Origin: Chiloscyllium plagiosum
Taxonomy: Eukaryota
Reading direction: 5' to 3'
DNA: 64,000 nucleotides
Assembly (NCBI RefSeq): GCF_004010195.1
Contig: NC_057752.1
Coordinates: 5,837,904-5,901,903, forward strand
In this document: piece by piece, positions 1,462-46,236 of the stretch
How the letters are laid out: each line of letters starts with the position of its first letter
Position numbering within the stretch: the first letter of the stretch is position 1
The notes under the pieces: model-generated
What the model saw: the letters and a program-made list of their open reading frames with translations, nothing else
What the model was told of the DNA's origin: nothing
The model's database searches: none
Translations under genes and position numbers: made by a program

Positions 1462-1523
1462 TAGATTTAGTATCTCTCCCATCTCCTGTTGTTCCACACA
1501 TAGGTGGCCTTGCTGATCTTTAA

Positions 1524-1694
1524 GGTGCGAAAGTGAGGACTGCAGATGCTGGAGATTAGCGTCGAGAGTGTGGTGCTGGAAAAGTGCAGCAGATCAGGCA
1601 GCATCCGAGGGGCAGGAGAGTCACATTTCGGGCATAAGATGAAGGGCTTTTGCCCGAAACATCGATTCTCCTGCTCCTTGGATGCTGCCTGACC
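1524..1694. mobile_element. PLE family A hairpin insertion (inverted terminal fragments)
   Basis: Inverted arms CAGCAGATCAGGCAGCATCC / GGATGCTGCCTGACCTGCTG; 13-bp TSD TGCTGATCTTTAA at 1511-1523 and 1695-1707; splits a CR1 coding stretch. Confidence 0.85.
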
Positions 1695-2589
1695 TGCTGA
1701 TCTTTAAAGGGCCCTATTCTCTCCCTCATTACCCTTTTGTCCTTAATGTATTTGTAGGATCTCTTTACATTTCCCTTAATTCTATTTGCCAAAGCTATCT
1801 CACATCTCCTTTTGGCCCTCCTGATTTCCCCCTTAAGTATACGCTTACTGTTCTTATACCCCTGTAAGGACTTGCTTTTCTTCCTTTTTTGTCCCAGGGA
1901 TGGAGACAGTGGGATTGGCAACGGACTCTTTAAGATGGAGGTGCCAACAAGGCAGCACCTGCAGCCGAAACAGGACACTTGGTGCTGAGGTGGCCTGGCC
2001 TTTACACTAACAGGAACCCTACTGTTTCTGAACTCTTGTTATCTCATTTTTGAAGGTCTCCCATTTTCCAACCATCCAGCCTCCCCCAGTCAACTTTTGA
2101 AAGTTCCTGTCTAATACCATCAAAATTGGCCTTACTCTAGTTTGGAACTTTAGCTATTAGATCAGGTCTATCCTTTTGCATAACTATTTTAAAACTAATA
2201 GAATTATGATCACTTGCCCTGCCTTATTTCCCGAGAATAGGTCACGTTTTCCTCCTTCTCTAGTAGGTACATCCACATACTGAATAAGAAATGTTTCTTG
2301 TTCACACTTAAATTCCTCTCCATCCAAGTTCTTAACACTGTGACAGTCCCAATCTATTTCTGGAAAATTTAAATCCCCTACCATACCATATCATATACAG
2401 ATATCTGATATTCTTACAGATATCTGAGATATGATTCTATGATATCCTTACATGTATGCTTCTCAATTTCCTGCTGACTATTGGTGGTGATGGTGGGGGG
2501 GGTGTCTATAGTACAGTCCCAAAAAAGGTGATCATCCTTTTCTTATTTCTCAGTTCCATCCATATCACTACAGGACACATGGAAAGCAA

Positions 2590-3063
2590 GGTCCATTTAC
2601 TCAGCAAGCAGAGTCTGTTTACTCAGCAAACATCGGAATCTATTCACTCAGCGCATGCCAAATTGATATATTTTCTCAGTAAACAGAAAATACAATCTAT
2701 TTACTCAGCAATAAGCAAACAGAGTCTATTTATTCAGAAAACACCAGATTCTATTTACTCAGCAAACAGAAAACAGAATCTATTTACTCTGCACACACCA
2801 ATGCAGGTCTATTTAATAAGAAAACAGAATCTATTCACTCAGAAAACATCAGCATCTATTTATTCAGCAAATAGAGTCTATTCAGCAAACAGAATCTACT
2901 TACTCAGCAAACAGAAACTGTTTACCCAACACACAGAAACTATTTACCCAACACACAGAAACTATTTACCCAACAAGCAGAAACTATCTACTCAGCAAAC
3001 AGAACCTATCTACTCAGCAAACAGAAACTATTTACCCCACACAAAATCTATTTACTCAGCAAA
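2590..3063. repeat. Degenerate minisatellite, unit about 22-27 bp (TCTATTTACTCAGCAAACAGAA-like)
   Basis: Many consecutive variants of TATTTACTCAGCAAAC / TATTTACCCAACACAC. Confidence 0.9.
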
Positions 3064-4382
3064 CATGTCTCACAAGCCTAATTGAGTTTTTTGAAGAGAT
3101 AACAAAGAGGATTGATGAGGGCAGAGCGGTAGATGTGATCTATATGGACTTCACAGTAAGGCATTCGACAAGGGAGACTGGGGAGCAAGGTTAGATCTCA
3201 TGGAATACAGGGAGATCTCGCCATTTGGATACAGATCTGGCTCAAAGGTAGAAGACAGAGGGTGGTGGTCGCAGAATGGACACCTGTGACCAGTGGAGTG
3301 CCACAAGGATTGGTGCTGGGTCCACTGCTTTTCATCATTTATATAAGTTATTTGGATGTGAGCATAAGAGGTATAGTTAGTAAGTTTGCTGATGACATCA
3401 AAATTGGAGGTGTAGTGGACAGTGAAGAAGGTTACCTCAGATTACTAAAAGATTTGGATGTGAGCATAAGGATATAGTTAGTAAGTTTGCTGATGACATC
3501 AAAATTGGAGGTGTAGTGGACAGTGAAGAAGGTTACCTCAGATTACAACAGAATCTTGAACAGATGGGCCAATGGGCTGAGAAGTAGCAGATGGATTTTA
3601 ATTTAGACAAATGTGAGGTGCTACATTTTGGGAAAGCAAATCTTAGCAGGACTTATACACTTAATGTTAAGGTCCTAGGGAGTGTTGCTGAACAAAGAGA
3701 CCTTGGAGTGCAGGTTCATAGCTCCTTGAAAGTGGGGTCGCAGGTTGATAGGATAGTGTGGAAGGCATTTGGTATCTTCATTTATTGGTCAGAGTATTGG
3801 GTACAGGAATTGGGAGGTCATGTTGCGGCTGTACAGGATATTGGTTAGGCTACTGTTGGAATATTGCGTGCAATTCTGGTCTCCTTCCTATCGGAAAGAT
3901 GTTGTGAAACTTGAAAGGGTTCAGAGAAGATTTACAAGGATGTTGCCAGAGTTGGAGGATTTGAGCTATAGGGAGAGGTTGAATAGGCTAGGGCTGTTTT
4001 CCCTGGAGCGTCAGAGGCTGAGGGGTGACCTCATAAATGTTTATAAAATCATGAGGGGCATGGATATGATAAATAGACAAAATCCTTTCCCTGGGGTGGG
4101 GGAGTCCAGAACTAGAGGGCATAGGTTTAAGGTGAGAGGGAAAAGATATAAAATAGACCTAAGGTGGTGCATGTATGGAATGAGCTGCCAAAGGAAGTGG
4201 TGGAGGCTGGTACAATTACAACATTTAAAAGGCGTTTGGATGGGTATATGAATAGGAAGGGTTTGGAGGGATATGGGCCAGGTGCTGGCAGGTGGGACTA
4301 GATTGAGTTGGAATATCTGGTCGGTATGGACGGGTTGGACCGAAGGGTCTGTTTCTGTGCTGTACATCTCTATGACTCTATT
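3060..4382 (+). mobile_element. CR1 LINE, RT domain through 3' tail
   Basis: SGVPQGLVLGPLLF, KFADD, KCEVLHFG, LEYCVQFWSP; CTCTATGACTCTAT tail; internal duplication of about 100 bp. Confidence 0.95.
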
Positions 4383-4739
4383 TTGCATAGAACCCCTCTC
4401 TGGTGACACCAGAATTGGGAACAAAAAGGATACTCTTGACATATCCGAATGAACATTCTCATCCCTTGCAGAAAAACCCCTTCTTAAAATTTATTTTATT
4501 TCAATATCCCAATGCATTGAGAATCCCAGCACATAGGAATGCTCACCGCTTCTAACCTCTAGCTAATTGGTTGTTGTATGATGGAAAGCTCTTTAAAATA
4601 AGCAGGTTAAGGTTTGCATTAACATAGTGGCCATGGGAACGCCTAACAAACATGTCGAATGTTTATCCATTGATAACTTTTGGTTTGAAGGTTTATGGGC
4701 ATTGATAAAACTCACAATGAAATTCACCTCAATATGTGT

Positions 4740-5300
4740 AACAACTTATATTTCTAATAGTGCCTTTAATGTAATAAAATTTCCCAGAGTTCTTCATAGA
4801 CTGGTTATTGGACAAAATGTAACTCCAAGTCAGTCACATGAGGAAACATTAGATCAGACAACTGAAGGCTTGATCAAAGAGGTTGATTTTGAGAAGTATC
4901 TTAAAGGATGAGAGAGAGGCAGTGAGGTTTAGGGAGGGAATTCTGGAACTAAGGGCCCAAGCAGCTGAAGGCACAGCCACCAATGGAGAACTGGATGCAA
5001 CAGGCCAGAATTTGGGGAGTGTAGGTAACTTGGAAGATCGTGGAGCTGCAGGAAATAAATGGAAACAGGGAGGTGGAGGTGTTGTGGGGTGGAGGGGAAC
5101 CAAGGTAATGAAGGGAATATAATACAAGGATGAGAACTTCAAGATCAAAGCATTGCCAGAACAGAAGCCAATGTAGATCAATGAGCACAAGGACCAATAG
5201 GGCAATGGGATGACAGGATTTAATATGGGCAGCAGAGTTTTTGGTGAACTCAAGTTTATGGTCTGTGTGGATAATCAAGGGCGAGGAGCATTTTGGAATA
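4740..5300 (-). mobile_element. Degenerate L2-like LINE 3' fragment
   Basis: Minus strand HPIALLVLVLIDLHWL..F and SFKILLKINLF motifs; homologous to 8830-9225, 15700-16540 and 31585-31925. Confidence 0.65.
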
Positions 5301-5517
5301 TAAAAGCATCAAACATCATCATCCATACAAGGCTCTCTGGTTCCATGACCAAGCAAGTTTTAAATGTGCATTTTTCCTCCCTGCAATCACTTAATTATAA
5401 ATAGATGGCTGATGTGCTGCACCCTACAAGTGCATCCTCAGAAGTTTCATCTAACTTCTCCTGCATGAGGTCGTGGGTTCAAGAGGAAAGTGCAATCATA
5501 GAATCATATTAAGGACA

Positions 5518-6230: not shown

Positions 6231-6232
6231 AA

Positions 6233-7268
6233 GAGGGGGTGGGGCTGGGGGAAGGTAGCTGAGAGTGCAATAGGTGGATGAAGGTGGGGGTGAAGGTGAT
6301 AGGTCAGAGATGAGACAGGTGGGATGGGTCATGAAGGCAGTGCTGGCAGGATAAGGTGGAGGGAGGGGAAATGAGGAAACTGGTGAAGATCACATTGATG
6401 CCCTGGGGTTGGAAGGTCCCAAGGCGGAAGATGAGGCGTTCTTCCTCCAGGCGTCGAGTGGTTAGAGAGTGGCGATGGAGGAGGCTCAGGACCTGCATGT
6501 CCTTTGCAGAGTGGGAGCGGAAGGGGAAGTTGAAGTGTTCAGCCACGGGGCAGAGGGTTTGGTTGGTGTGGGTGTCCTGGAGATGTTCTCTGAAGTACTC
6601 TGCAAGTAGGGCCTCACCTCCCACCCCCTCACCTTCGTCCAAGGCCCCAAAGGAGCCTTCCACATCCATCAGAGTTTTACCTGCACTTCCACATGTCATT
6701 TACTGTATCTGTTGCTCCCGATGCAGTCTCCTTTATATTGGGGAGACAGGATGTCTACTCGCAGACACTTCAGAGAACATCTCAGGACACCCACACCAAC
6801 TAACCCCACCGCCGCGTGGCTGAACACTTCAACTCCCCTTTCCCTCCCCTTCCGCCAAGGACATGCAGGTCCTGGGTCTCCTCCATCGCCAAACCTTAAC
6901 CACCTGACGCCTGGAGGAAGATGAGACATTCTTCCGCCTAGGGACCCTCTAACCCCACAGCATCAATGTGGATTTCACCAGTTTCCTCATTTCCCCTCCC
7001 CCCACCTTATCCCAGTTCTAACCTTCCAGCTCAGCACCGCCCTCATGACCCGTCCCACCTGTCCATCTTCCTTCCCACCTATCGGCTTCACCCTCCCTTC
7101 CGACCTGTCACCTTTACCCCCCACTTAGCTCCCAGCCTCATTCCTAACGAAGGGCTTTTGCCCAAAACGTTGATTCTCCTGCTCCTTGGATGCTGCCTGA
7201 CTTGCTGTGCTTTTCCAGCACCACACTCTTGATTCTAATCTCCAGCTTCTGCAGTCCTCACGTTTGAC
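6233..7268 (+). mobile_element. Penelope-like element family A, GIY-YIG region with inverted 5' arm
   Basis: Plus strand VIYCICCSRCSLLYIGET (GIY-YIG); 6233-6610 is an inverted copy (FREHL..PVAEHFN..RLEEERLIFRLGT); ends in the family A terminus with a decayed hammerhead at about 7140-7175. Confidence 0.88.
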
Positions 7269-7271
7269 TAG

Positions 7272-8829: not shown

Positions 8830-9225
8830 CAGCTGCTGAAACCATCACCTATGCATTTGTTGCCTCCAGACTTAACTATTCTAATTAATCTCTAGCTGGT
8901 CTCCCACATATGCAAGTCCCTCCATGGCCTCATTCCCTCCCTATCTCTGGAATCTCCTCCAGCTCCACCACAACTCTTCAAGATATCTGTGCTCCTCTAA
9001 TTCTGGTATCTTGTTTAAACACTTCACCTTTGGTGGCCTTGCATTAAGCTGCTGGGGCTATAATCCCTGGCATTCTCTCCCTAAACCTCTCCTTAAGACA
9101 TCCTTAAAACCTGTCGCTTTGACCAAGTCACTTGCCCAAGTTTTGCTTGGTGTCTCATTTTGTTTTATGCTGTTCCTTGGGACATTTAGTTAAATTAGGG
9201 AGGCTTTATAAATATAATGCTGGTG
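8830..9225 (+). mobile_element. Degenerate L2-like LINE 3' fragment
   Basis: CATGGCCTC..CCTCCCTATCTCTG and ..CTCCCTAAACCTCTCC..CTTAAAACC motifs shared with the other L2 copies. Confidence 0.6.
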
Positions 9226-11006: not shown

Positions 11007-11169
11007 CCTTTAATATTTTTTAAAAAACATTATTGGAAATAGTGCCACAAATAATCAGCTTTGGAAAGAAGTGACCCCAATGGAATTGAACATTGGATGG
11101 CCTATCTGTTGGAATTAATCTTAATTATGTCTTTCTCATAAGAAAATAACAGCATATATATTCTTTTGT

Positions 11170-13030: not shown

Positions 13031-13329
13031 GATCTGTACGAGCTTGCTGTGCACGAGTTAGCTGCTGTATTTCCTATGTCACAACAGTGACCACACTTCC
13101 CCTTTGGGACATTTGCTTATACTGTGTGGAAGGCAACAATGACTTTATCCCCATTGGTCAGGTTTTCATGTTGAGCTCACCAACTGTTGTGGAAGCTGAA
13201 ATTTGGATAAGCCAGAGCTAACATGAGAGTTCGAACCATTTCATACAACCATCTCCCTTGCACACACACTAGGATCCCAGTTAAAAATCACACAACACCA
13301 GGTTATAGTCCAACAGGTTTAATTGGAAG

Positions 13330-13364
13330 CACTAGCTTTCGGAGTGACGCTCCTTCATCAGGTG
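13330..13364 (-). ncRNA. Minimal type-I hammerhead ribozyme motif (family B)
   Basis: Reverse complement reads CAC-CTGATGA-A-GGAGC-gtc-ACTCC-GAAAGCTA-GTG. Confidence 0.72.
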
Positions 13365-13375
13365 ATTGTCACAAT

Positions 13376-13410
13376 CATCTGATGAAGGAGCGTCGCTCCG
13401 AAAGCTAGTG
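13376..13410 (+). ncRNA. Minimal type-I hammerhead ribozyme motif (family B)
   Basis: CAT-CTGATGA-A-GGAGC-gtc-GCTCC-GAAAGCTA-GTG. Confidence 0.78.
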
Positions 13411-13515
13411 TGCTTCCAATTAAACCTGTTGGACTATAACCTGGTGTTGTGTGATTTTTAACTTTGTACACCCCAGTCCAACACCGGCATCTCCAAATCA
13501 TGACTAGGATCCCAG

Positions 13516-13935: not shown

Positions 13936-14152
13936 GTGCCAGTCTTCTTTTCAGGGTGGAGCTGATCTTAGGAATAGGAAGCTGGCACTCCTCAGGGGAT
14001 TGGGCATGGGAAGATGGGGACGGAGTTGGTGCTTCTCAGTGGGGCCAGTATCTGTGGATGCAACGTTTAGTCCCATTCTTCTGAAAGCCAATCATCAATT
14101 GTATCCATGATTTAGACGTCATTTACAACAACAATTTAAACTTTCAGAGTGA

Positions 14153-14917
14153 GTTTTGAGAAGATTTGTAGCTCAGGTTGAGCTGAGCTGGAAGGTTCAA
14201 AAAGAACGGGTACCCAATGAACACAGTCTGCCCATATCTCATTAACAAACCCCAACAAGCAGACAAAACACGTCCAGAAACCCTAACCACTCTCCCCTAC
14301 ATCAAAGACATCTCAGAAATGACTGCCAGACTACTCAGACCCCTTGGCATCATGATAGCCCACAAACCCACCAACACACTAAAACAGCAGCTAATGAACT
14401 TGAAAGACCCGATACAGACAACAAGCAAAACATTTACAAAATACCTTGCAAGAACTGCAACAAACACTACACTGGACAGGCAGAAAACTAGCCACCAGGA
14501 TACATGAACACCAATTAGCTACAAAACGACATGACCCTCTCTCACTAGTGTCTTTACATACAGATAAGGAAGGACACCACTTCGACTGGGACAACACATC
14601 CATCTTAGGACAAGCCAAACAGAGACACACACGAGAATTCCTCAAAGCATGGCATTCCAACCAGAACTCTATCAACAAACACATTGAGTTAGACTCCATT
14701 TACCACACCCTGAGAAAAAGAACAGGAAATGGCAACACCACAGGAAATGACATCACCACTGGAAATGACATCACCAACCCAAAGAAACCCAAGCACATAA
14801 ATAGAAAGCAGGAATCATGTACAGTGCTTCGCCTGAGGCCCACTGAAGATGTTACTGAGTAGGGTGATGAAACGTCTGGAAATGAACCTTCCAGCTCAGC
14901 GAGCAAACCTACATCCA
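14153..14917 (+). mobile_element. Penelope-like element family C, 3' part with short inverted 5' terminus
   Basis: TLPYIKDISEMTARLLRPLGI..HKPTNTL; GRKLATRIHEHQ..H..HHFDWDN..REFL.AWHS (GIY-YIG C-terminus); 14182-14199 is the reverse complement of 14883-14900. Confidence 0.9.
14840..14879 (+). ncRNA. Minimal type-I hammerhead ribozyme motif (family C)
   Basis: CCA-CTGAAGA-T-GTTAC-tgagtagg-GTGAT-GAAACGTC-TGG. Confidence 0.75.
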
Positions 14918-15380: not shown

Positions 15381-15939
15381 ATAAAACTCAAATTGCAAAG
15401 CAGTACACAATTCTGACATAGCATGCATCAAATTACAGACAGTGTTCATCACTTATGTACATTATCAAGGACTCTCAACAAGTATGCAATAGGAATATAT
15501 CAGCACCTTTCCATCCTGCATCTTACAGGGTTGAGTATAGTTGAATCGCTGAGTGGTCTTGATTGGACCAGGTGTGATCGTGCGAACCATCTCTGAAGTT
15601 GGGGCGATCGCACTAGGGATTTTCCAAATGTAGTACCATCATGAACCCTCTAGTCTGCTAACTTTCAATCTTTACAGCATGAAGGGCATTGTCATATGAC
15701 TGGGAACCTAAGGAGCTATAAGTGGAGGTAATCAAATGCTTGATCAAAGAATTGGGTATTGAGGAGGATGAAAGTGAGGTAAGGAAGTGTAAGGAGGGAA
15801 TTCCAGAGCTTGAGGCTTGGGCAGCTAAAGATATGGTCACCAATGCTGCAGCAACTCAAATCAGGATGACTAAGAGGCCAGAATTAGAGGAGTGCAAATA
15901 TCTCTGAGAGCTGTGAGGCTGAAGACGTTCACAGAGATA

Positions 15940-16158
15940 TGATTCGGAGATGCTGGTGTTGGACTGGGGTGTACAAAGTTAAAAATCACACAACACCAGG
16001 TTATAGTCCAACAGGTTTAATTGGAAGCACACTAGCTTTTGGAGCGACGCTCCTTCATCAGGTGATTGTGTCACCTGATGAAGGAGCGTCGCTCCGAAAG
16101 CTAGTGTGCTTCCAATTAAACCTGTTGGACTATAACCTGGTGTTGTGTGATTTTTAAC
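15940..16158. mobile_element. PLE family B hairpin insertion
   Basis: Inverted arms; perfect 12-bp TSD TTCACAGAGATA at 15928-15939 and 16159-16170. Confidence 0.9.
16072..16106 (+). ncRNA. Minimal type-I hammerhead ribozyme motif (family B, intact)
   Basis: CAC-CTGATGA-A-GGAGC-gtc-GCTCC-GAAAGCTA-GTG. Confidence 0.8.
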
Positions 16159-17593
16159 TTCACAGAGATAGGGAGGGGGGTGGGAAAGGCTTTGCATGGA
16201 TTTGAAAACAAGAATGGCAGCTTTCAAATTGAGGCCTACTCTCATGAAACATTAACCCTGTTTCTCTCCATAGGTGCTGCCTGTCCTGATACGTTTTTTT
16301 CAACTTCAGATTCCCAACATCTGTGGTGTCTCATTTCTGTATTCATGTGAAATCAGGGCATGGCTTAAGTGGAAGCCAGTGTAGGGGGTCAGAGGGCCTG
16401 CTTTGATTTGATTTGATTGGCATGAGACAGGGTGGGTAAAGGGTGAACAGGACTCAGTGACTGTTAGGAGATGGGCAGCAGAGTTTTGGATGAATGTGGG
16501 AGACCAGCCAGGAGTGTGTTACAGAGTTGAATATGTGAGGGAAGCCAGCCATGCAGTGTTGCCTCTTCACAGTAAAAATACACACTGATGTGCCCCTGGA
16601 AAACCCAGTGCTTGCCATTTTGCCAGTGAAAGTATTTCCTGCATGTTGCCTTGATGTGGCAGACCTTGCCTGTGGTGGATCAGAAGGATGTGGTAGCTAG
16701 AACATTTTATACCCTGCTAATCTTTTCTTTCGGCAGTGTTTCAAATATTCCCTGTTCCAGATGTTGTCTGCAGATTATCCTGCAGGAGAGTATAGAACTC
16801 TGGGACTGCTGATCCTTTGACACATGGACAGAAGGTTCTGGTGTGGTCTCTAACACCGTCCTCTGGACTTGACACAGAGAGGGAGAGGGAGAGAGAAGAA
16901 AGTCAACGGATCTCCCTTTGACTACTTAACCCCAGGCTGACTGATCCTGGCAGCTCTCAGCTGCCTCTGGAAGGGTCATGGGATAGGTACCAAAACAGAA
17001 TGCAAGAACATCTTTTGTCCTCTAAGCTTTACAGAAATGCCCTCTGCTCCCTCCATTTGTGGGCAGCATCCCCTGCGTTCTTTCTGCTTCACTTCCATTC
17101 ACAATTGAAACCTAATAAAATGCCAATGTTATTTGCCAGGAAATTTTATCCTGGGATCAAAATTATGCTTGGATCAGGCTTTCGATAAAAGCTGCAGTTA
17201 AAGATAGCCAATTTGCAAATCTTTGTACCACAGCCCATTTAATCATTCAGCAATTCAATCGAAACAAAACCAACATCAGAATACTTTTAACAAAAACATA
17301 TTTTACACAAAAGTGATTAGACTCTTGAACTGTGCTGCTGTTTCTGAATAAAATTTGGCACTGGATAGGTTACACTTAGTCTGCTGAGCATTAAAAGCAT
17401 ATGGTCAAGCAATATTTTATGCTCAGGAATTGAACCCTATGAAATGAATTGGGACACAGTTTGGTATATTGGAATTTTGCACTTCAGCTAGGTATGTGTG
17501 GAATTGAGTTCAGTGGTCCTTCTCCGAGTTAGTAGGGAGACTCCTGCACTAATAACCTGTGGTGAGTGGATAGACATTTGTTATCATGGAACT

Positions 17594-18300: not shown

Positions 18301-18836
18301 AGCTCTGTCTCTCTCTTAACATTTCGACTCTCACAAGGTCAGGAGAGGTTACTGCTGTTCTGAGCCAACCCTTTTGTTTGCAGCTTATATGTCCTGTGAC
18401 ACTGCAACAGATGAAATTGAGATGTTGTGAATATCTTCATCCATGCAGCATTCACCCTCAATTATAAAAATGGCCTTGCAAAGCAATTTTAGTGAGAACA
18501 AAAGCACCTTTTCTTTTTGCTTATCCTGTTTCAGTTAATGAGGTGCAGATTTTGGACAAATCAATTGAGGTACATTGTTAGGTTATAATAACTATGATAT
18601 TGATCAATAATGCATTCCTTTAAAATCAGTGCTAAAGGAAAATGTATGCTTCATATATCAGAGAACAACACTGCTGCATTGTCGTAAACAACAGAGTTGA
18701 TTTCCACACCGTAATCTCCCACAAATGATGTAATAGTGACAGGATCGACATTGTTAAGCTGCTGGTTGAAGTATTACATGTTGATCCATAAACTGGGTGA
18801 TCTTAGCTGTCCTTCTTCAGACAATGAGATCTTTTA

Positions 18837-19059
18837 TGATTAGAATAGTGCTGGAAAAGCACAGCAGGTCAGGCAGCATTCGAGGAGCAGGAAAATCGAC
18901 ATTTCGGGCAAAAGCCCTTCATCAGGAATGAGTTGATGACGGCTTTTGCCCGAAACATCAATTTTCCTGCTCCTCAGATGCTGCCTGACCTGCTATGCTT
19001 TTCCAGCACCACTCTAATCTTGACTCTATTCTCCAGTATCTGCAGTACCCACTTTTGCC
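18837..19059. mobile_element. PLE family A hairpin insertion with minus-strand hammerhead (18894-18929)
   Basis: Inverted arms; perfect 15-bp TSD CAATGAGATCTTTTA at 18822-18836 and 19060-19074. Confidence 0.9.
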
Positions 19060-19214
19060 CAATGAGATCTTTTAAGCCTAAGTATCAGTTCTTTTGACAA
19101 ATGACATTATACTGCAGCAAGCTAAATATTTACAGTGTTACAAAGACATGGTTCAGCAGGACTCTATTAAAACCTCTCCCATCAGGTCCCTGCTCCATGT
19201 CATTTTTTGAAAAA

Positions 19215-19610
19215 AAATCATTGGGCATGGATATTTATTGCCCAGAGGGCAGTTGAGACTCAACCACATTGCTGTGACTCATTGCAGGCCCAAGTGAGGA
19301 TTGCTTTCACAGAAAGGCCTTTAGTGAACCAGGTGGGTTTTAAACTACAGAGGTTATAATTAGATTAGCAGATTTCTTTAAAACTGAACTCAAATTTCAC
19401 CATCTTCCACAGTAGGATTCAAAATCACACCCCCAGAATGTTAGAATAAAGCGAAGAACTGCAACTGCTGGAAATCTGAAACATAAACAGAAATTGCTGG
19501 AGAAACTCAGAACGTCTGGCAGCATCTCTGGGAAGAAAGCAAAGTTAATGTTAGTCCGGATTCTAGATTACTAGGCTAGTATCATACCACTGTGTCACTG
19601 CCTCTGCTTA
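19215..19610 (-). mobile_element. Second-family tRNA SINE interrupted by a PLE family D terminus (about 19445-19550)
   Basis: Homology to 31010-31345 and to the family D arms. Confidence 0.6.
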
Positions 19611-27582: not shown

Positions 27583-27753
27583 GAGAAAGTGAGGACTGCA
27601 GATGCTGGAGATCAGAGTCGGGAGTGTGGTGCTGGAACAGCACAGCAGGTCAGGCAGCATCCGAGGAGGAGGAGAATTGACGCTTCAGGAATAAGCCCAT
27701 CTGCTCCTCGGATGCTGCCTGACCTGCTGTGCTTTTCCAGCACCACACTCTTG
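27583..27753. mobile_element. PLE family A hairpin insertion
   Basis: Inverted arms; 16-bp TSD ACAACTCA(C/T)CATTCAG at 27567-27582 and 27754-27769. Confidence 0.88.
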
Positions 27754-27759
27754 ACAACT

Positions 27760-28780
27760 CATCATTCAGTGAATATCCTGGAATTCACTGGCATCTCGTG
27801 TACACGTGCCATCTTTAAAAGCCTGAAGTGCACACAGGAAAATACTGTTAATCTGGAGCTACTCTAAACATTTGCCCCAAACATGGAAGAAAGAGGGAAA
27901 TCGGCACCCTGCCTTGTGGGCAGGGTTCAGAAGGTCCTGCTGGATAGTGTGGTACATAGGTGGGACGTCCTCTTCACCCAGCAGTGGAGGACACAATACC
28001 AGATCATGCCCAATCCGATCCAAAGGTACCAACCGGCTCAGTGCAGTCTCCGAATCTGGAGGAATGCTCAGCGCTGTAGGAAGAAGGTCAGTGACCTTCC
28101 CCACCCCACCAGTGTAAGTGCTGCCATCTTCTCTCTGATACCTCACACTCTCACTGTCTCTCTGCTCCTGTACCCACCTCCCACTCTCACTATTGGTGCA
28201 ATATCTTCCCTCACTCACTGTTATCCACCCCAACCCCCTGACATCGCTAACCCTGCATGTCCTCTGCCCTGCCCACTCACTCACTGAGGACACCTCCTCA
28301 TCTGGCACTCACATTCACCTCCTCAATACCTACCTCTTCCAGGAGGACAACAGCCTGCAAGAGGGCAGAAATAGTCAAGATGGGTGGTGTGCTGCCTGTC
28401 ATGTGACTCCTCACCCCTTATGTGGACAGCATCCTCACTCAAACTGCCCTAAGCAAGGCATTGACTGGTAGTGGAGACTGCCCTTGACTTATTGTGCTGG
28501 AAATCCCGCCTTTGTATCTACGCTAAATGGCATTGCTGGACAACAGTAAAAGAACTGATATGTCTGATGGAGGGAGCAAAGTGCAAAAAGGCAAGGAAAT
28601 ACAAGATGCTGTGAGCATCCAGGTAGGCTCAGAGTGAGTGAGTGCTATGGCAGCGAGTGGAATAGCCAGAGATGCAGTCTGGTCCAGTCCATTATCTCCA
28701 TCTGTCTCCCCTGAACACACAGTGTCCTTGCTGCATCATTACAATGATAATTTCCAGTGCAGCCCAAGTTGCAGTATTCA
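27760..28780 (+). mobile_element. PIF/Harbinger remnant with a Myb/SANT-like ORF
   Basis: MEERGKSAPCL...VLLDSV..RWDVLF...RNAQRCRKKVSDL resembles Harbinger Myb/SANT (NAIF1/MSANTD-like) proteins; right boundary uncertain. Confidence 0.65.
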
Positions 28781-33190: not shown

Positions 33191-33196
33191 AGAATA

Positions 33197-34212
33197 AGGC
33201 AAAAGTGAGGACTGCAGATGCTGGAAACCAGAGTTTAGATCAGAGTGGTGCTGGAAAAGCACAGCAGGTCAGGCAGCATCCGAGGAGCAGGAAAATCGAC
33301 GTTTCGGGCAAAAGCCCTTCATCAGGAATAGAGGCAGGTAGCCTCCAGGGTGGAGAGAAGGTAGCAAAGAGTACAATAGGTGAATGGGGGTGGGGATGGA
33401 GGTGATAGGTCAGAGAGGAGGGTGGGGGAAGGTAGCAAAGAGTACAGGACTACAAGGAACCCCGCACCACCCGATTCTACCTCCTTCCCAAGATCCACAA
33501 GCCTGACCACCTCAGCCGACCCATTGTCTCAGCCTGCCCCTGCCCCACCGAACTCATCTCCACCTACCTCGATATTGTCCTGTCCCCACTAGTCCAGGAA
33601 CCCCCCACATACATTCTAGACACGACCCACGCCCTCCACCTCCTCCAAGACTTCCGTTTCCCCGGCCCCCAACGCCTCATCTTCACCATGGATATCCAAT
33701 CCCTCTACACCTCCACCCGCCATGACCAGGGCCTCCAAGCCCTCCGTTTTTTCCTCTCCAGACGTTCCCAACAGTACCCCTCCACCGACACTCTCATTCG
33801 TTTGGCCGAACTGGCCCTCACCCTTAACAATTTCTCCTTTGAATCCTCCCAATTCCTCCAGACCAAAGGGGTAGCCATGGGCACACATATGGGCCCCAGC
33901 TATGCCTGTCTCTTTGTTGGCTAAGTAGAGCAGTTGATCTTCCGTAATTACACCGGCACCACTCCCCACCTCTTCCTCCGCTACATTGATGACTGCATTG
34001 GCGCCACCTCGTGCTCCCGCGAGGAGGTTGAGCAATTCATCAACTTCACCAACACATTCCACCCTGACCTTAAATTTACCTGGACCATCTCTGACACCTC
34101 CCTCCCCCTCCTGGACCTCCCCATCTCCATCAGTGATGACCGACTTGACACTGACATCTTCTACAAACCCACCAACTCCCACAGCTACCTGGATTACACC
34201 ACTTCCCACCCT
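33197..34212 (+). mobile_element. Penelope-like element family A: inverted terminus (33197-33445) joined to an RT fragment
   Basis: FYLLPKIHKP, RPIVS, MDIQSLYTS, KGVAMGTHMGPSYACLFVG, FLRYIDDCIG; truncated by the L1 at about 34213. Confidence 0.92.
33294..33329 (-). ncRNA. Minimal type-I hammerhead ribozyme motif (family A, intact)
   Basis: Reverse complement reads ATTC-CTGATGA-A-GGGC-tttt-GCCC-GAAACGTC-GATT. Confidence 0.78.
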
Positions 34213-34487
34213 AATGGTTAGCTGCCTATTTATGGACAGTTTGGGATGGGTAGTAGCCCCCTCTGGGCAGGGGATGAGTTCACCTACTCAGCGCTATTGG
34301 CGCTTTATATGTTGGTTTGTTTTCTGTTTTTTGTTGTTTTTTATTTTTAATAATTTCTTATGTTTGTTAAATGTAGTGGTTTTAGTTTATGTAGTTTTTA
34401 TATTTGGTGGACCATGTGACACTAAGGTTCAGCAATTTGTGGTTCGGGTTCCTCCTCTCTGGAATTTAAATGTAATTGCAGATGATT

Positions 34488-37400
34488 ATGGCTAATGATT
34501 TGATTAAATGGTGTACCTGGAATATCAAGGGAAGTCACTCACCAATTAAGAGGAAAAAGGTACTCTTGAGTCTTAGAAAGGAGAAGGTGGATATTGCTTT
34601 GTTACAGGAGACACATTTGGATGACAAGGAGCATCTGAAATTACAGCAGAATGGCTTTGACCGAGTTTATTTTTCATCATTCAATACCAGCAGTAGGGGA
34701 GTGGCTATATTGGTTAGGAAAAGTCTCTCATTTAAATTGTTGGAATGTGTTAAAGATACATACGGGAGGTTTGTAATTCTTAAAGCCTTGATAAATGGGG
34801 AAGAATATGGCATTTTAAATATTTATTGTCCCCCCAGCTCATCCTCTTAAATTCTTGGTAGATGCTTTTTCTAAAATGATAAGTCTCAAGTCTCAGCACA
34901 TCATTATAGGTGGAGATTTTAACTGCCTTATGGACCCCACAGTAGACAGGTTGCCTAAAGGTCCCTCGATACCCTCTGCACAAACTAAACAGTTATTGGG
35001 TTTGTGTGGGGAATTAGGATTGGTGGACGTCTGGAGGTGTCTCCATCCTACAGGTAGGGATTTTACGTTTTTCTCCGATCCACATAGATGTCACACGAGG
35101 ATTGATTTTTTTCTGACCCCTGCGGTAACCCTGGATCTGGTGGCATCCTGTACGATTGGTAATATTGCCATCTATGATCATGCTCCAGTGTACCTCATGG
35201 TTAAAATTAAGGATGTTACAGTGGATTCAAGGTACTGACAAATGGACCCCTTTATTCTCATGGACAGTAAGTTTGTGGAGTATTTCTCGAGGGAATTTCG
35301 GGCATTCCTAGACATCAACATAAGCTCGAATGTTAGCTCATCTGTTCTCTGGGAAACTGCCAAAGCTTATGCCAGGGGGTTAGTTATTTCATATTCCACC
35401 AGTAGGAAGCGGCAGAAGGGTGAGCAGCAATGCCTCCTTGAAGCACGGTTGAAGGCCTATTTTGATAGACCCTCGTTGGTCAAACTACAGAGGATTACGG
35501 CACTGCGGTCTACACTAAATTCCGTGCTTACGCAGACGGCAAAGAAGGAGCTGGCTTTTGCAAAGCAAAGGTTATACAAGCATGGTGACAAGCCAGGCAA
35601 ATACCTAGTATACCTTGCCAGAAAGAGAAGTGCCCCACAAACCATTACAGCGATTAGGGAAGGGTCTGGGAACCTAACATGTGATTCTAAAAAGATTAAT
35701 GTGGTGTTCCAGAGATTCTACTCTAAGTTATATCAGTCTGAGAATTGTGAGGAGGGGCAGGCCAAAATGGAATCCTTTTTTAGAGATCTGAAACTCCCAG
35801 GTGTGACTCCCGAACAACGGTCCTTTCTCAATGCCCCACTATCAGAGCAAGAAGTGCAGGAAACTGTGACGCAACTTCAGAGTGGAAAGGCGCCCGGTCC
35901 TGATGGACTTCCCAGTGAATTCTATAAGGAATTTATAAGTATACTGTCAGGCCCAATGCTGAATATGTTTAATNNNNNNNNNNNNNNNNNNNNNNNNNNN
36001 NNNNNNNNNNNNNNNNNNNNNNNNNNNNNNNNNNNNNNNNNNNNNNNNNNNNNNNNNNNNNNNNNNNNNNNNNNNNNNNNNNNNNNNNNNNNNNNNNNNN
36101 NNNNNNNNNNNNNNNNNNNNNNNNNNNNNNNNNNNNNNNNNNNNNNNNNNNNNNNNNNNNNNNNNNNNNNNNNNNNNNNNNNNNNNNNNNNNNNNNNNNN
36201 NNNNNNNNNNNNNNNNNNNNNNNNNNNNNNNNNNNNNNNNNNNNNNNNNNNNNNNNNNNNNNNNATAAGATCTCGCTGTATGCAGATGATGTTCGAATTT
36301 TCTTGACAAATCCAGCAGTCTCAGTGCCTTGCCTGATACAATGCATTCACGCGTTTGGCGCTTTTTCAGGGTATAAGATTAATTTTGCTAAATCAGAGGC
36401 TATGCCTATGGGTGGTCTTACGAAAGAGTTGGCTCTTGAGAGTGACTATAGATTCCCATTTAGGTGGTCACAGGGGGGTTTTGTGTATTTGGGCATATTC
36501 ATTACTCCAGTTCTGGACTGGCTGTTCAAAGCCAATTTTACTCAATTATTTGAAAAAATTAAACAGGATCTTCAAAGATGGGAGGCACTTCCGGTCTCAT
36601 GGTTGGGTCAGATAGTGCTTATTAAGATGAATATTCTCCCTCGTTTGCTCTCCCCTATACGGATGGTCCCACTGATTTTCAATAAACAAACACTCAGGAG
36701 ACTGAACGGTTGGTTCAGCTCCTTTATCTGGCACCGTAAACGGCCCCTCAATAAATTAGCCAACTGCAGTTGCCTCACAGATTGGGGGGAGTAGACCTTC
36801 CGGACATTTAAAAATGACTAATTAAGTTCGCTTTTGACCTACGTGAGTGATTGGGTTCGTGGGGATCCTCTTTCACTATGGCTAGATATCAAAGCCTCCC
36901 AGGCAAGGTGCCCCCTTACCAGTTTGCTGTTTTTGGACAAGGTGAGGACAGTTAGGGAATATTGCCATAACCCAATAGTCATCAATACAGTTAAAGCATG
37001 GAGGGCAATTTGGCAGAGGGAAGGTAATATTGGCAAAACACCTTTGTTTATACCTTAGTGGGTATGTTGGGTTTTCAACTGGGTCTGATAGATTCAGGAT
37101 TTAAATGTTGGGCAGCTAGGGGTATATCTTGCATGGGTGATTTATTTGAGGGAGATGTAATGATGTCCTTCAATCAGTTAGTACGGAAGTACGAGTTATC
37201 TACTAGAGACCTCTTTCGTTTTTTTCAAGTTAGGGATTTTATTTAAAAAAACCCACATTTTTGACTGATCCCTACAAATCTGACATAGAAAGAGAGGTAC
37301 TAAGGGCTAAGAGCACACTCTCTGTCAGTACTTTATATCACTAATTGGGGGGTGCCACCTCAGATGAGTCTGATCGACTCTGCAAGATGTGGGAAAGAGA

Positions 37401-37960
37401 GCTGGGTGTTGAAGTTTTTTCAGAGGCATGGGAGGATATTTGGGAGAATGCAAGGAAGATATCAATTTGCAATAGGACCCATGCTTTACAGCTGAAGATT
37501 CTTCACAGGGTCTACTTAGCCCCAGACCATTTGTCAAAGGGGTATCTTCAGCATGTCCCAAGTGCAAGGTCTGTACGGGTACTCTTACCCATTGTCTTTG
37601 GTCTTGTGACAGGCTTCAAACATATTGGAGCGCTGTGGTGGGTGCAATGGAGAGGATTTTAGGTGTAGGGGTGGAGAAGGACCCTATTTCTCTCCTTTTG
37701 GGCCTACCCATTGTATTTCCTGCAGAATCGCATAAGAAAACACTTTTCAATATTCTTATGTTCTGTGTAAGGAAGAATATCTTGCTAGGTTGGATATCCG
37801 AAAAAACCCCAGGCCTGTCGGGTTGGCGGAGCATATTCCCTTGGATTTTCTCTCAAATATGGTACACCACAAAACTGAGAATTTTTACAAGACATGGCAA
37901 CCCTTTTTGAAATACCTGGACACAGATTTATCTGCCACACTAACAAGGGCTTTTATATAG
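34488..37960 (+). pseudogene. L1 ORF2 (endonuclease and RT), disrupted, spans an N gap
   Basis: Multiple frameshifts and stops; ends WQPFLKYLDTDLSATLTRAFI*. Confidence 0.9.
35974..36264. other. Assembly gap
   Basis: Run of N. Confidence 1.
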
Positions 37961-38295
37961 CCGTAATGCTTGTGTTTCATGAGTCCAATATCCAGGGAAG
38001 AGGAACTGTGAATGTATGAGTGTTTTCTTTGGCTGGGCTGAGTTATTACTATTTATTTATTTGTTGTTAGGTATTTATTTATTTAGTTAAATAGCTAGTT
38101 TAGTTTTTTTTAAGTTTTATACTTTCTCTATATATGTTTATACATTCGTATAGGAGGGTGGGTTGGGGAATTTGTTTTATTATTTGGGTTTAGTTTTGTA
38201 CTATTTTTGTACTGTTTTGAATTGCATTGTTTTGTATTTGTTGTAATATTTAAAAATCTATTTTTTCTTAATAAAAATATATTATTAATTTTTTT

Positions 38296-38445
38296 TTTAA
38301 AAAGGCATCTGGATGGGTATATGAATTGGAAGGGTTTAGAGTGATATGGGCCAAATGCTGGCAAATGGGACTAGATTAATTTAGCATATCTGGTTAGTGT
38401 GGATGAGTTGTACTGAAGGATTGGCTTCTGGGCTGTACATCTCTG
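38296..38445 (+). mobile_element. CR1 3' end fragment
   Basis: TTTAAAAAGGCATCTGGATGGGTATATGAA and tail. Confidence 0.85.
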
Positions 38446-40047: not shown

Positions 40048-40675
40048 TACGCAGAAACTGCTTTTACTTTGGAAGGCATGTTGGGGATTACTTGAAAAGG
40101 GGCAATTGTCGTGGCTATGAAGAAAGAATGAGCCAGTGGGGCTAATTGGATAACTCCTCCAAAGAACTCCTCCAATGGCCTCCTGAAGCGCTGTATCATT
40201 CTGTGACGCAATTAGTTTATTTTAACAGTTTCACCTATTTAATCTTATCTCAAAGAATGCCTTTACAGCACTGTCAATGGGATTTCAATGCAGTCTAATG
40301 TATAGTTGGCTCACTATTTTCTCATATGTTTGCTGATAAGTCAATGACGACTGAACTCCTGTAATCATTGAAGTGCTTTGAGACATGGTGAAGCATTTGT
40401 GTAAGCGAAAACTCTTTTTTCTGTTCTACTAAAAACAACCTGAACTTCTTCTCCAGATTCTGAAGAAAGCATTTGGAAATTCCTAACAGTGGGTGATGTG
40501 CTGGCAGATGCAGAGATAGGAGCAATTTCAGTTAATTAACCAAGATTACAAAAGAACCACATTGATATAACATCAAAGTACAACAAAGTAATTTCTTTCA
40601 TAGTATATATCTTCACCTTACAATAACACCGGTTGAAAGGAGCATGATAACTTTGAACAAATCTTATTTAGTATA

Positions 40676-40766
40676 CAAAAACAGAAATTGCTGGAAAAGT
40701 TCAGCAGGTCTGGCAGCATCTGTGGAGAGAAATCAGTGTTAACATTTTTGGTCGAGTGACCATTCC
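40676..40766 (-). mobile_element. PLE family D terminus, single arm
   Basis: ACAGAAATTGCTGGAAAAG.TCAGCAGGTCTGGCAGCATCTGTG; TTAGTATA direct repeat at 40668-40675 and 40767-40774. Confidence 0.7.
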
Positions 40767-40789
40767 TTAGTATAACTTGATTCAGAATT

Positions 40790-41660: not shown

Positions 41661-42579
41661 TCGTTGAGAAAATATGCCCATTTCTATTTTCTCTAAATGG
41701 TGATGATGTTTTACTGCCATTTTTAACAGAAATATTGAATTATATACTTGATTAGTGGACACAGGTTGATATCCTAGATCTTACTTTCCAACATAATGCA
41801 TAATGTTCCACAGTCCATGGAGAGCTTGATAACTCCAATTGGACATCTAGAATTGAGAGGTGAATCAGGCCCTCATATCACTCAATAATTATCTGTTTAA
41901 CATTGTTATCTTTAATATTGCTTTAAAAAAAGACACAAATTCAAAACTTTTCATTGGACACAAAAAAATTGAACTTGAAAGAGAACACCAATTTATAACA
42001 CATGAGAAATGGGTGCTGACTGATTGGATAATGACTGGCATGGAGATGTAGCAGGAACCGTTAACAGTGAATCTTACTTACCCTATTAAACACAGGCCAG
42101 GCAAATCAAAACCCAACTCTGCCTGGTCTTATTCAATCATCAATGATTAATCCCCACTCGAACTGCCTGCCAACGACATGTGATGGAATGATTTGCAGGT
42201 TGATACTCGAACTATTTGGCTGCGTTATGAATGTATCTGCCTGGGCTGTCAAGTCCTGGAGTTCGACTCAATCCCATAGCTTCTGGCTCAGAGGCACATC
42301 TTTCCAAATTGTACTGACCATATATGTGCATAACCCTACACAAACAGGCACTCAGTCATTTTACAGAGTAGCCTCAAAGATGTGAAGAAAGGAACTGCTC
42401 TGTCATTCCATGGTAAAAGGTCAGAGCAGAATATGATCACTCCTGTGATAAGAGCAGATATGCCATAAGGAAAGCATTTGAACTTATTCAAGGGATAGTT
42501 TCAGTTATTACATACTTTGTGTATGTGAATATAGCTGTAATTATTTACTTATCCCTTACACAAAAGTACTATGGACAGT

Positions 42580-42785
42580 GGAAATCGGAAATAAAACCAG
42601 AAGGTGCTGGAAATCAGCAGCTTTGCCAGCATCTGTGGAGAGAGAAAAACAGAGTTCACATCTCAGGTCAATGACCTTTCAGTGACACCCACCAGAACTT
42701 TCGCATGGCAAGTCACAGACCAGAAACGTGAACTCTGTTTCTCTTTCAACAGACACTTGCAGACCTGCTGAGCATTTCAAGTAAT
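42580..42785. mobile_element. Degenerate PLE family D hairpin
   Basis: AGAGAAAAACAGAGTTCAC / GTGAACTCTGTTTCTCT inverted arms. Confidence 0.6.
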
Positions 42786-44085
42786 TTCCATTTTTACACC
42801 CATTGCCCTTGTCTTCAAGGTGGAGGTGGTCATGGGTTCAGAAGGTGCTATCGGAAAAGCCTTCATGAGATTCTGTAGGGAATTTTGTCTGGTATACACT
42901 GTTGCCACTGTGTGTAGGTGGCGAAGGGAGCTGATATTTAAGTATGGCTTTCTCTTCATAAATTGCACATCCTTATGAAGGATTAACTGAATGAATGTAA
43001 TGGGTCTTTCCGTTCACTGACCTCCTCATATTAAATTACTGTAGGATAATACTTCACATTCTCATGCATTATGAAGCATTTCAGTTTTATATACTCGCAT
43101 CCAATGTGAAATGATTGCCTCATTTTGACCTTTGGTTACAAATTCAGAAACCTGGTCACTTCAGGTTGCACTATGTCGACAGCAATCAACCTCTATGACT
43201 ACAGACTCAGGAAAGCCTAAATTCTTGTGTCGGTCCAGTCACCTCTTTTTCAAGATAAATTCTAGTTTCTCAAGTCATCCGCTGTAAGTGAATAGGTGGG
43301 GATTATCTCTTCAAAAATCTCCATTACTGCAGTTCTGACATAACCCCAAGAATGTTAGCCATATTTCCTAGAGACTTCAAATATACCTATTGTGCAACAA
43401 TTCCCAACTGTCGTGAATGTAGCACTTTGACATTGCTTTTCTTGTATTCAATTCTACACAGTATGCACACAATGGCTTGAGCTCTCTTCTGACCCTTTCA
43501 ACTCTGACCTTTTAACCTGACACCCACTTCTTGCTCTTCATTGCAGGGGTGTATGATCATTTCTGTCCCTCCAATAAGGTCACATCTCACGACGACTCAC
43601 TGCCACCTTCACAAGGGCAGCTAGGGATGGGCAATAAAAACTGGTCTTGCCAGTAAGACCCACATCTCATGAATGAGCTTTTATTTTAAAATACAAAATG
43701 ACACAAGGTGATACATACACATCTTTAAATAACTTAATGCACTCAAGTGGATCTTGTTAATTAAATCAATCTCTTGCGGAAATACTTCTTTCCGGTCTGC
43801 CAGTTTATAACTTTTGAGGGTCCAATAAAAATATTATAAAACATCTTACATTTCACAGCGACCAGAATTTCTATGCACTTTACAGCCAACAAAGTACTTC
43901 CTGAAGTGTCGTTAGCTACTGATGTAATGTCGGAATCGTGGCAGCCAGCATTGGTTGAGCATTTCTAATTACTCCTAAATTGAGCGGCTCACTCAGCCAT
44001 TGTAGAGGGCAATTAAGAGTCAACCACATTGCTGTGGGTTTGGAGTCACATGTAGGCCAGTCCAGATTTCCATTCCTAAAGGCAT

Positions 44086-44929: not shown

Positions 44930-45294
44930 ACAACAACAATTAATGATTGTTGTCATGGTAACCATTACTGAGACTAGCTTTTAATCCCAAATTTATTAAT
45001 TGAATTTAAATTCCACCAGCTGCTACGGTGGTATTTGAACCCATGTGCCCAGAACATGAGCTTCGGTCTCTGGGCTATTTCCTGCAGCAACATCACCACT
45101 TTGCCACCTTCTCTCCAATGAGCAGCTAATCTGATTTTGTTATTCGAATGAGGGATAAGTACTGACCTAGAAACTTGCAAGAACTCCACTGCTCTTCTTG
45201 GCATTGTGCCATGAGCAGGCAAACAGGTTAAATGAAGTGTATGTCCTCATAGCAACAGACATACACGATACAGGATGGATCAGCATCATAATTG

Positions 45295-45425
45295 TGAAGA
45301 AGTCACTGGACTCAAAACGGTAACTCTACATTCTCTTCACAGATGATGCCAGACCTGCTCAGTTTCTCTGGCAATTTCTGTTCTTGTCTGTTTCAGATCT
45401 TCAGCATTTGCAGTTATTTATTTTC
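45295..45425 (+). mobile_element. PLE family D terminus with decayed hammerhead
   Basis: TGAAGA-AGTC-actg-GACT-CAAAACGGTAACT..CACAGATG.TGCCAGACCTGC. Confidence 0.65.
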
Positions 45426-45709
45426 TTATATCAACATGATAGGAAGTGACGAATCACCACCCTGTAAGATATTAAAAGTTACTCTGTATGCCAGCTCCTT
45501 ATCTGGGCATCAGTATGACTCAGAACCCATGTCAGAAGCCACACACTTTAACCACTAGAAGAAGCTTTTAAAGCTGTAGATTTCCAACATGCTTTGTCTG
45601 TGTACAAGACCAGAGAAGGTCCAGGTGTGTCTCATGAAAGGCTTGGTGGTGAGCAGAATTCATGGATGGAAGGATCACCCCTGACAACAGCTGACTGAAT
45701 AATGTGTGA

Positions 45710-45932
45710 GAAAGTGAGCACTGCAGATGCTGGAGATCAGTCGAAAAGTGTGGTGCTGGAAAAGCACACCAGGTCAGGCAGCATCCAAGGAACAGGAGAA
45801 TCGATGGTTCGAGCATAGGTTCGATGAGCATAAGTTCATTTCTGTTGAAGAGCTAATGCTCAAAACGTCGATTCTCCTGCTCCTCGGATGCTGCCTGACT
45901 GGCTGTGCTTTTCCAGCGCCACACTCTTCGAC
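45710..45932. mobile_element. PLE family A hairpin insertion
   Basis: Inverted arms; 16-bp TSD (14/16 match) at 45694-45709 and 45933-45948. Confidence 0.82.
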
Positions 45933-46006
45933 ACTGAATACTGGGTGAAACAGGGTGAGAATGTCACGGTCAAGGGAACCAACCCAAAATAGAACATGTA
46001 CATGAA

Positions 46007-46218
46007 AACCGAAAAAACTACTGATGCCGTAAATCAGAAACAACATCAGACATTGCTGGAAAAGCTCAGCAGGTCTGGCAGCATCTGTGAAGAGAAATCA
46101 GAGTTAATGTTTTGGCTCCAGTGACGAGAAAAGGTCACCAGACCCGAAACATTATCTCTGATTTCTCTTCACAGATGCTGCCAGACCTGCTAAACAACTT
46201 CTGTTTTTGTTAGTGTTC
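46007..46218. mobile_element. PLE family D hairpin insertion
   Basis: Inverted arms; 15-bp TSD GAACATGT(A/C)CATGAA at 45992-46006 and 46219-46233. Confidence 0.82.
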
Positions 46219-46236
46219 GAACATGTCCATGAATTG

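Follow-up and report, generated by a model that had tools for sequence, protein, structure and literature searches.

We analysed a 64,000-nt stretch of the genome of the shark Chiloscyllium plagiosum (NCBI RefSeq assembly GCF_004010195.1, contig NC_057752.1, positions 5,837,904 to 5,901,903 of the forward strand; here called the window), which carries seven short palindromic inserts built from the 3′ ends of Penelope-like elements (PLEs). Their arms lie head to head, their outer ends fall at two family-fixed sites 33–40 nt apart, the flanking target duplication is variable and the centres differ. We favour a model, to which we give a probability of about 0.6, where the hairpins are made afresh at each insertion by two-strand priming, two PLE end pieces being inserted in one step. 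The layout itself, with an inverted pseudo-long terminal repeat (pLTR), a one-sided tail and a target duplication, is already published for PLE insertions; the hairpins are its smallest form, a miniature and not a new self-copying element.

An earlier note on this DNA, made from the letters alone, had listed seven palindromes of 170–225 bp, each flanked by a direct repeat of 12–16 bp, had assigned them to three families and had counted roughly one per 7–9 kb. All seven sit where it had placed them, with 170–223 bp between the duplicated copies. They are given below with the strand of each arm; the core is that of a minimal hammerhead ribozyme motif, and LINE and ORF stand for long interspersed nuclear element and open reading frame.

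Insert 1 (listed at 1524), family A, 1525–1694, 170 bp: long arm about 1525–1638 (-), short arm 1641 to about 1699 (+), the last 5 nt common with the duplication; duplication 1511–1524 / 1695–1708, 14 bp, 1 mismatch; interrupts a LINE ORF; without an intact hammerhead core.
Insert 2, family B, 13281–13502, 222 bp: short arm 13279–13369 (-), long arm 13370–13502 (+); duplication 13268–13280 / 13503–13515, 13 bp, 0 mismatches; intact minimal cores 13333–13361 (-) and 13379–13407 (+).
Insert 3, family B, 15940–16158, 219 bp: long arm 15940–16070 (-), short arm 16072–16160 (+); duplication 15928–15939 / 16159–16170, 12 bp, 0 mismatches; core intact at 16075–16103 (+), one core change in the other arm; interrupts an old LINE 3′ region.
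Insert 4, family A, 18837–19059, 223 bp: short arm about 18835–18932 (-), long arm 18934–19059 (+); duplication 18822–18836 / 19060–19074, 15 bp, 0 mismatches; subfamily with a 3-nt insertion in both arms; core intact at 18898–18925 (-).
Insert 5, family A, 27583–27753, 171 bp: long arm 27583–27701 (-), short arm 27701–27754 (+); duplication 27567–27582 / 27754–27769, 16 bp, 1 mismatch; the junction removes the core from both arms.
Insert 6, family A, 45710–45932, 223 bp: long arm 45710 to about 45820 (-), short arm 45836–45932 (+); duplication 45694–45709 / 45933–45948, 16 bp, 2 mismatches; about 15–20 nt rearranged at the centre, core decayed.
Insert 7, family C, 46007–46218, 212 bp: long arm 46007–46125 (-), short arm 46128 to about 46211 (+); duplication 45992–46006 / 46219–46233, 15 bp, 1 mismatch; about 7 extra nt, core incomplete.

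The flanking repeats are present in all seven inserts with 0–2 mismatches each. With insert boundaries fixed beforehand, the same ±8 nt boundary search on 1474 random position pairs gave only 6–11 pairs (0.4–0.7%) scoring as high as any given insert. Arm complementarity within inserts is 86–100%, and each of the seven contains an inverted 5′-truncated copy joined head to head. The division into three families also stands, A and C having in common a 32-nt block (about 90%) and a similar motif spacing. As had been noticed from the sequence, inserts 1 and 3 interrupt host repeats, which we take to be CR1 and L2, and uninterrupted host copies reveal the empty site. For insert 1 the flank peptides overlap by about 12 nt on two uninterrupted LINE ORF copies (48956–49027 and 49826–49969). 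For insert 3 an uninterrupted copy within 8860–9080 is matched by both flanks with an overlap of 11 nt; shuffled sequence matched as well as the left flank in 0 of 500 trials and as well as the right flank in 6 of 500. An empty site could not be shown for insert 2, as the right flank alone matched another repeat copy. The density in the window is one per 9.1 kb for the seven inserts, or one per 7.1 kb for nine hairpins: every listed insert is real, but the list was incomplete, and two older hairpins, a 1.68-kb long-armed version and eight single-arm stubs are present as well.

The outer ends of the arms are highly regular. Numbered from the first base of the hammerhead core, the long arms end at +120 to +127 and the short arms, in five inserts, at +82 to +91. 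The short arm of insert 1 is about 25 nt shorter still and starts internally, where 5 nt match the target; in insert 7 the short arm carries a 9-nt deletion. The resulting one-sided tail measures 33–40 nt in five of the seven inserts by alignment, about 38 nt in insert 7 by eye and about 60 nt in insert 1. The asymmetry had been described as one complete and one truncated arm; one arm is indeed longer, but the difference sits at the outer 3′ ends and represents the known PLE tail rather than random truncation.

The same two sites, about 37 nt apart, recur for family B in DNA contigs of two organisms (X1 and X13) and in similar numbers. Ends at the short site (63918/63920) number at least 534 + 1109 (1643) in X1 and at least 521 + 1132 (1653) in X13, and ends at the long site (63956/63957) at least 578 + 1395 (1973) and at least 598 + 1402 (2000). 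These counts are minimum values, drawn from contigs of the two DNA runs aligned to a single family B arm and taken from the best 6 rows per run, beside 1454 further rows. Single sense arms with duplications of their own end at either site, those at 40675 and 47787 at the short one, so the short site behaves as a start or priming end and not as a truncation. The two ends also frame the 1.68-kb long-armed copy, which holds an ORF end, and by eye 1–5 nt are common to duplication and element at several outer ends.

Two structural observations concern these ends. In predicted single-arm folds of family B (13370–13502) and family A (33198–33333) the tail pairs with sequence upstream of the short end, so that the short site is enclosed and the long site falls immediately 3′ of the stem; the family B stem also covers the poly(A) cleavage zone. 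The folds are weak, with z from -0.3 to -2.0 (-1.4 for B, -2.0 for A). At the short end of insert 7 (46212–46223) the approximately 7 extra bases make up, together with the first bases of the duplication, a small perfect palindrome, possibly left by a brief fold-back of the target end.

Linkage to PLE ORFs, which the earlier note had assumed, is borne out in the window for families A and B, whose repeats lie behind endonuclease ORF ends (UTR, untranslated region; RT, reverse transcriptase).

6238–7266, family A ORF-bearing copy: endonuclease C-terminus 6631–6970 (+), 3′ UTR, pLTR and tail to 7266; inverted partner about 6238–6609.
33198 to about 33440 (-), family A inverted pLTR and tail: intact core 33298–33325; joined to a PLE RT fragment, 33454–34212 (+).
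62277–63956, long-armed family B copy: inverted arm 62274–62984; direct copy with endonuclease C-terminus 63030–63206, then 3′ UTR, core 63837–63865 and tail to 63957.

The RT fragment, beside the family A repeat at 33198, is 91–92% identical to a Chiloscyllium punctatum protein. Because its longer relatives carry RVT_1 together with a GIY-YIG domain at the C-terminus, the parent is likely to be an endonuclease-bearing PLE, judging from these protein matches. A profile of the relatives' C-termini matches two places: 6631–6970, upstream of the family A repeat at 7128–7266, and 63030–63206, which precedes the family B repeat at 63828–63957 and scores E 2e-5 with the profile and 6e-12 with phmmer against 120 proteins. 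No ORF adjoins any family C copy within the window.

At the centres of the hairpins, all seven junction pairs differ within the window, the comparison by which the earlier note had proposed to separate independent events from amplification of the hairpin itself. For inserts 1–7 the long/short 5′ offsets are +11/+5, -9/-8, -9/-3, +1/-8, +5/+35, +15/-6 and +9/+3, as placed by local alignment, which is a few bases off the by-eye reading in inserts 1, 5 and 6. All but one of the 14 arms end within the range -9 to +15 and no arm goes beyond -9, though the references for A and B ran about 75 nt further. Ribozyme cleavage as the event that sets the junction is ruled out, since 13 of 14 arms pass the predicted cut site at about +28 and one stops downstream of it. 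In inserts 4 and 6 the short arm extends further 5′ than the long arm, so that one folded-back complementary DNA (cDNA) could not yield them without later deletion. Both arms of an insert belong to the same subfamily; between long-arm and short-arm variants there were no fixed differences in 30–87 columns, a comparison of low power with 2–3 inserts each. Among the best 15 of 230 joints in contigs, inversion joints of the centre type were scattered over many places.

In the two-strand model, the PLE enzyme would nick both target strands 12–16 bp apart, and each nick would prime a short reverse transcript, one begun at the long site of the repeat RNA, the second at its short site. The two copies would each run for 55–135 nt, stopping in or just 5′ of an uncleaved hammerhead, and the cDNA 3′ ends would then be joined and trimmed, during repair or later. 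Such products would be dead ends, since RNA downstream of the long site is missing from them and they would be expected to fold up as a single long duplex. Of the two origins put forward earlier, minimal products of PLE target-primed reverse transcription with inversion fit best, while a non-autonomous class mobilised in trans is unsupported.

Priming on both strands and the pair of start sites have a counterpart in vitro (published work is cited here from the parts of its text that were available). The Poseidon protein of Anolis carolinensis nicks and extends both strands and starts at two internal positions on its RNA, the spacing of which equals the tail; it works on uncleaved RNA, requires the ORF's first 172 nt and is a predicted dimer (PMC11167929). 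The two family B contig-end sites match these two reverse-transcription starts and the priming of both strands. Poseidon starts about 55–100 nt downstream of the hammerhead cut; the family B long end lies at about 92 nt and the paper's site, by our count, at about 82–89 nt (PMC11167929). Poseidon differs in belonging to another PLE family and host, and joined hairpin products are not described in the available text (PMC11167929).

A number of observations weigh against the two-strand model. The in vitro data come from a lizard Poseidon, and one long and one short start on the same target are not shown in the available account (PMC11167929). At the centres, inserts 2 and 3 have the same long-arm 5′ base (-9), inserts 1 and 6 by eye both have +11, and a centre joint of 63828 to 63860 (-9 to +23) reaches a depth of 307 in X13 against 8–27 for the long pieces listed, which implies that some copies may share a junction. 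Unique junctions can also be obtained by central deletion after insertion. The genome-wide test of junctions is weak, as near-perfect palindromes are lost from contigs and only the best 15 of 230 joints were seen, and the comparison of arm variants draws on just 2–3 inserts per family. Nor need the -9 limit be the 5′ end of an RNA, because Drosophila Penelope is transcribed from a point about 120 nt upstream of where helix I has its boundary (PMC2377424, PMC4209133); by this analogy the limit may be a splice or helix boundary instead, and a stalling polymerase is a further candidate. The Drosophila start lies 46 nt ahead of a 75-nt intron (PMC2377424), the end of which maps to helix I (PMC4209133), at the place matching the arm-stop position of family A. 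In the window, a pyrimidine-rich tract followed by AG (7120–7144) stands just before the family A repeat's position -8, a stopping point of several arms.

Nor would one round of two-strand priming lead us to expect the joints between short and long sites. These account for four of the best 15 of 230 joints, on opposite strands, with at least 50 contigs in X1 and at least 57 in X13, or about 1.5% of listed ends. In three of the four the shorter side (45–56 letters in X1) exceeds the tail length, so that these lie tail to tail; joints of short to short or long to long sites were absent among the best 15 of 230, and no tail-to-tail joint occurs within this window. Such joints could arise by re-priming on a nascent end, by insertion into the element's own end, or from concatemers or circles. 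The last of these suggests an alternative in which the mobile intermediate is the hairpin itself, in the form of a closed dumbbell or circle with a hammerhead-junction loop and a tail loop: opening at the short–long joint would yield the insert, and repeated copying would yield the tail-to-tail joints. We regard this as improbable; if true, a vertebrate genome would harbour a viroid-like hammerhead replicon of two polarities that a Penelope enzyme moves.

Other routes to the same layout can be weighed against these data. The hairpins could be the remains of full units (inverted pLTR, pLTR, ORF, pLTR) that lost their middle by recombination between direct pLTRs, as solo long terminal repeats do. 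The full layout is published, with 8–10 bp duplications, solo pLTRs have been ascribed to recombination or deletion (PMC3846280), and long-armed versions are present in the window. However, short pieces far outnumber long ones there (seven plus two hairpins and eight stubs against three ORF-linked copies of A and B), the recombining repeats would be only about 130 bp, and the two youngest hairpins, with arms differing at 1 and 4 of 87 columns, would need a rapid collapse; we consider this origin unlikely. Slightly more doubtful is a fold-back of a single cDNA, primed by a nick at the long site, that snaps back near the hammerhead and copies itself to the short site, the opening of the hairpin then giving a double-stranded palindrome. 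Such a course suits inserts 2 and 3, with a long arm to -9, a short arm from -8 or -3 and nearly no spacer; helix II is a local inverted repeat, and junction palindromes have been read as self-priming (Arkhipova et al. 2013, PMC3846280). In inserts 4 and 6, however, the short arm holds sequence missing from the long arm, and in inserts 1 and 7 it also starts further 5′; insert 2 has between its arms a 2-nt indel by which other copies are distinguished too, and only one variant in the six inserts tested is privately common to both arms of an insert.

A master hairpin, transcribed and copied whole by a PLE enzyme in trans, with junctions that diverge by later central deletion, would account for the narrow size range, the absence of any arm beyond -9, the near-identical junctions of inserts 2 and 3 and the one high-depth centre joint, as well as for short–long tail-to-tail joints as products of concatemers or circles. 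Yet a shared junction is what the window fails to show, with seven of seven pairs differing, and there are no variants specific to an arm type. Single sense arms and long-armed copies end at the short site as well; the RNA would be 67–89% paired by prediction, and missing from the unit is the downstream RNA needed by the anole protein in vitro (PMC11167929). Further, the common unaligned letters before 63825 in RNA reads resemble upstream UTR and not a mirrored core (by eye, agreement 0.6). We rate such self-amplification as poorly as the fold-back. That the inserts are DNA-transposon miniature inverted-repeat elements with terminal inverted repeats is close to untenable: they are short, palindromic, non-coding and abundant, but one terminus overhangs the other by 33–40 nt or more, so that the repeats are not terminal, and the arms match repeats behind PLE endonuclease ORF ends. 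Duplications of 12–16 bp, rather than of one fixed length, and unequal ends agree with the earlier note's rejection of this origin.

The hairpins had also been called ribozyme-bearing, which is true of three of the seven inserts, where an intact minimal core remains, but not of the other four. Four of the 14 arms have such a core (both arms of insert 2 and one each of inserts 3 and 4). A minimal-hammerhead descriptor matched the window exactly seven times, always within these families, against no match in 100 shuffles; three of the seven lie in the listed inserts, to which one arm with a C-to-T change outside the core can be added. Core boxes, extra base, helix II, palindromic positions 15.2/16.2 and cleavage triplet are all represented, and the inserts gave no match in Rfam at gathering scores. 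Whole inserts are predicted to form long duplexes, 67–89% paired, that bury the motif. The hammerhead would be a passenger from the parent repeat.

The family B repeat also carries a polyadenylation signal.

63875–63895 (+), family B polyadenylation signal: hexamer at +38 from the core, with a G/U-rich tract downstream (region to 63914).

Loose poly(A) ends at 63889 and 63895 (+52 and +58) account for 509 + 549 = 1058 of 4644 aligned RNA reads from a poly(A) single-cell library. Because these polyadenylated ends (+52 to +58) precede both start sites, initiation of reverse transcription would be internal on a longer RNA. The hexamer is found in all four arms of inserts 2 and 3; family B hairpins thereby carry on both strands a poly(A) signal of which copies of the family make use, and this could affect host transcripts. 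RNA editing was considered and found no evidence: A>G and T>C sites were about 2.3–2.5 times the DNA level in RNA, but A>C, T>G and T>A were equally raised.

Endonuclease-bearing PLE units are described with an inverted pLTR, an optional tail of 30–40 bp and a target duplication (PMC3846280; PMC8557442). The hairpins have in common with them the inverted, 5′-truncated head-to-head copy, the tail at one end, the duplication around the whole unit and a parent with RT and C-terminal GIY-YIG. They differ in lacking the ORF and the second, direct pLTR, in their size of 170–223 bp and in duplications of 12–16 bp against 8–10 bp in rotifers (PMC3846280). Inverted pLTRs and short 3′ extensions have been treated as routine (PMC8969392), and how PLE inverted ends form is given as an open question (PMC8557442, PMC11167929). 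The motif agrees with the minimal hammerheads of metazoan PLEs in its core, one extra base before helix II, the G-C at the base of helix II and the palindromic 2-nt stand-in for helix III (PMC4209133). In Schistosoma, pairs of hammerheads on opposite strands lie 100–700 bp apart, and the available text does not define them as duplication-bounded units (PMC4209133). In contrast to those minimal hammerheads, only four of 14 arms here keep the core, and two motifs pair together. Non-LTR retrozymes are likewise short (150–450 bp), non-coding, hammerhead-associated retro-sequences, but consist of direct tandem repeats with canonical type I hammerheads and give circular RNAs (PMC7229834). The single inverted pairs, the minimal motifs and the lack of Rfam matches do not fit that class.

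In L1 twin priming both target strands prime cDNA, giving an inverted 5′ part, and the second site is variable and set by microhomology. The short arm of insert 1, which starts at its 5-nt target match, is alike; elsewhere the second site is fixed by the element, 33–40 nt from the first. A scan of metagenomes with the family A/C motif gave 81 loci, none matching the arms beyond 34 bp, and these were treated as chance. In a literature search of titles and the starts of abstracts, with most subscription journals and Repbase/Dfam outside its scope, neither ORF-less PLE hairpins in sharks nor twin priming by PLEs was described. Within about 200 bp such stubs preserve both primed ends, the nick spacing and the junction, and as seven inserts fill 2.3% of the window, a shark assembly would offer thousands of natural products for testing two-strand priming, fold-back and collapse.

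The remaining copies of these families in the window are hairpins and single-arm stubs.

42575–42797, older family-C-like hairpin: not in the original list; 6-bp flanking repeat only.
48745–48945, older family-C-like hairpin: not in the original list; no clear duplication.
40675–40767 (-), family C single-arm stub: ends at the short site; 8-bp duplication.
47787–47886 (+), family C single-arm stub: ends at the short site; intact core 47787–47816; later copied again at 47972–48115.
19445–19552 (-), family C single-arm stub: ends at the long site; 8-bp duplication.
45293–45425 (+), family C single-arm stub: ends at the long site; possible 12-bp duplication with 2 mismatches.

The duplication of the stub at 47787 is 13 bp long with 1 mismatch and overlaps the core start; this stub and its flank are duplicated in tandem within 47770–48200 (about 195 bp), the second copy having a further internal repeat. 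No duplication was found for the family A single stubs at 28780 and 19994, and that at 57587 has only a 7-bp repeat inside the element. The long-armed family B copy (62277–63956) folds back over 1.68 kb, its arms measuring about 710 bp, and has a small inner inversion (62989–63076) at the endonuclease end; its flanks show a possible 12-bp duplication with 2 mismatches, a score reached by 11% of random pairs. In the family A copy at 6238–7266 the inverted partner starts upstream of the hammerhead and not at the short site, and no flanking duplication was found.

The family A RT fragment is directly followed by a long LINE (34213–38300), presumably L1-like, with endonuclease and RT frames and a 308-base N gap; the rest of the PLE was not found beyond this LINE. 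A fourth PLE family is represented at 14152–14917 and 24385–24990 by GIY-YIG fragments, with a degenerate hammerhead at 14843–14876. Its copies have a common 31-bp inverted piece at one end and possible duplications of 16 and 14 bp, with 3 mismatches each.

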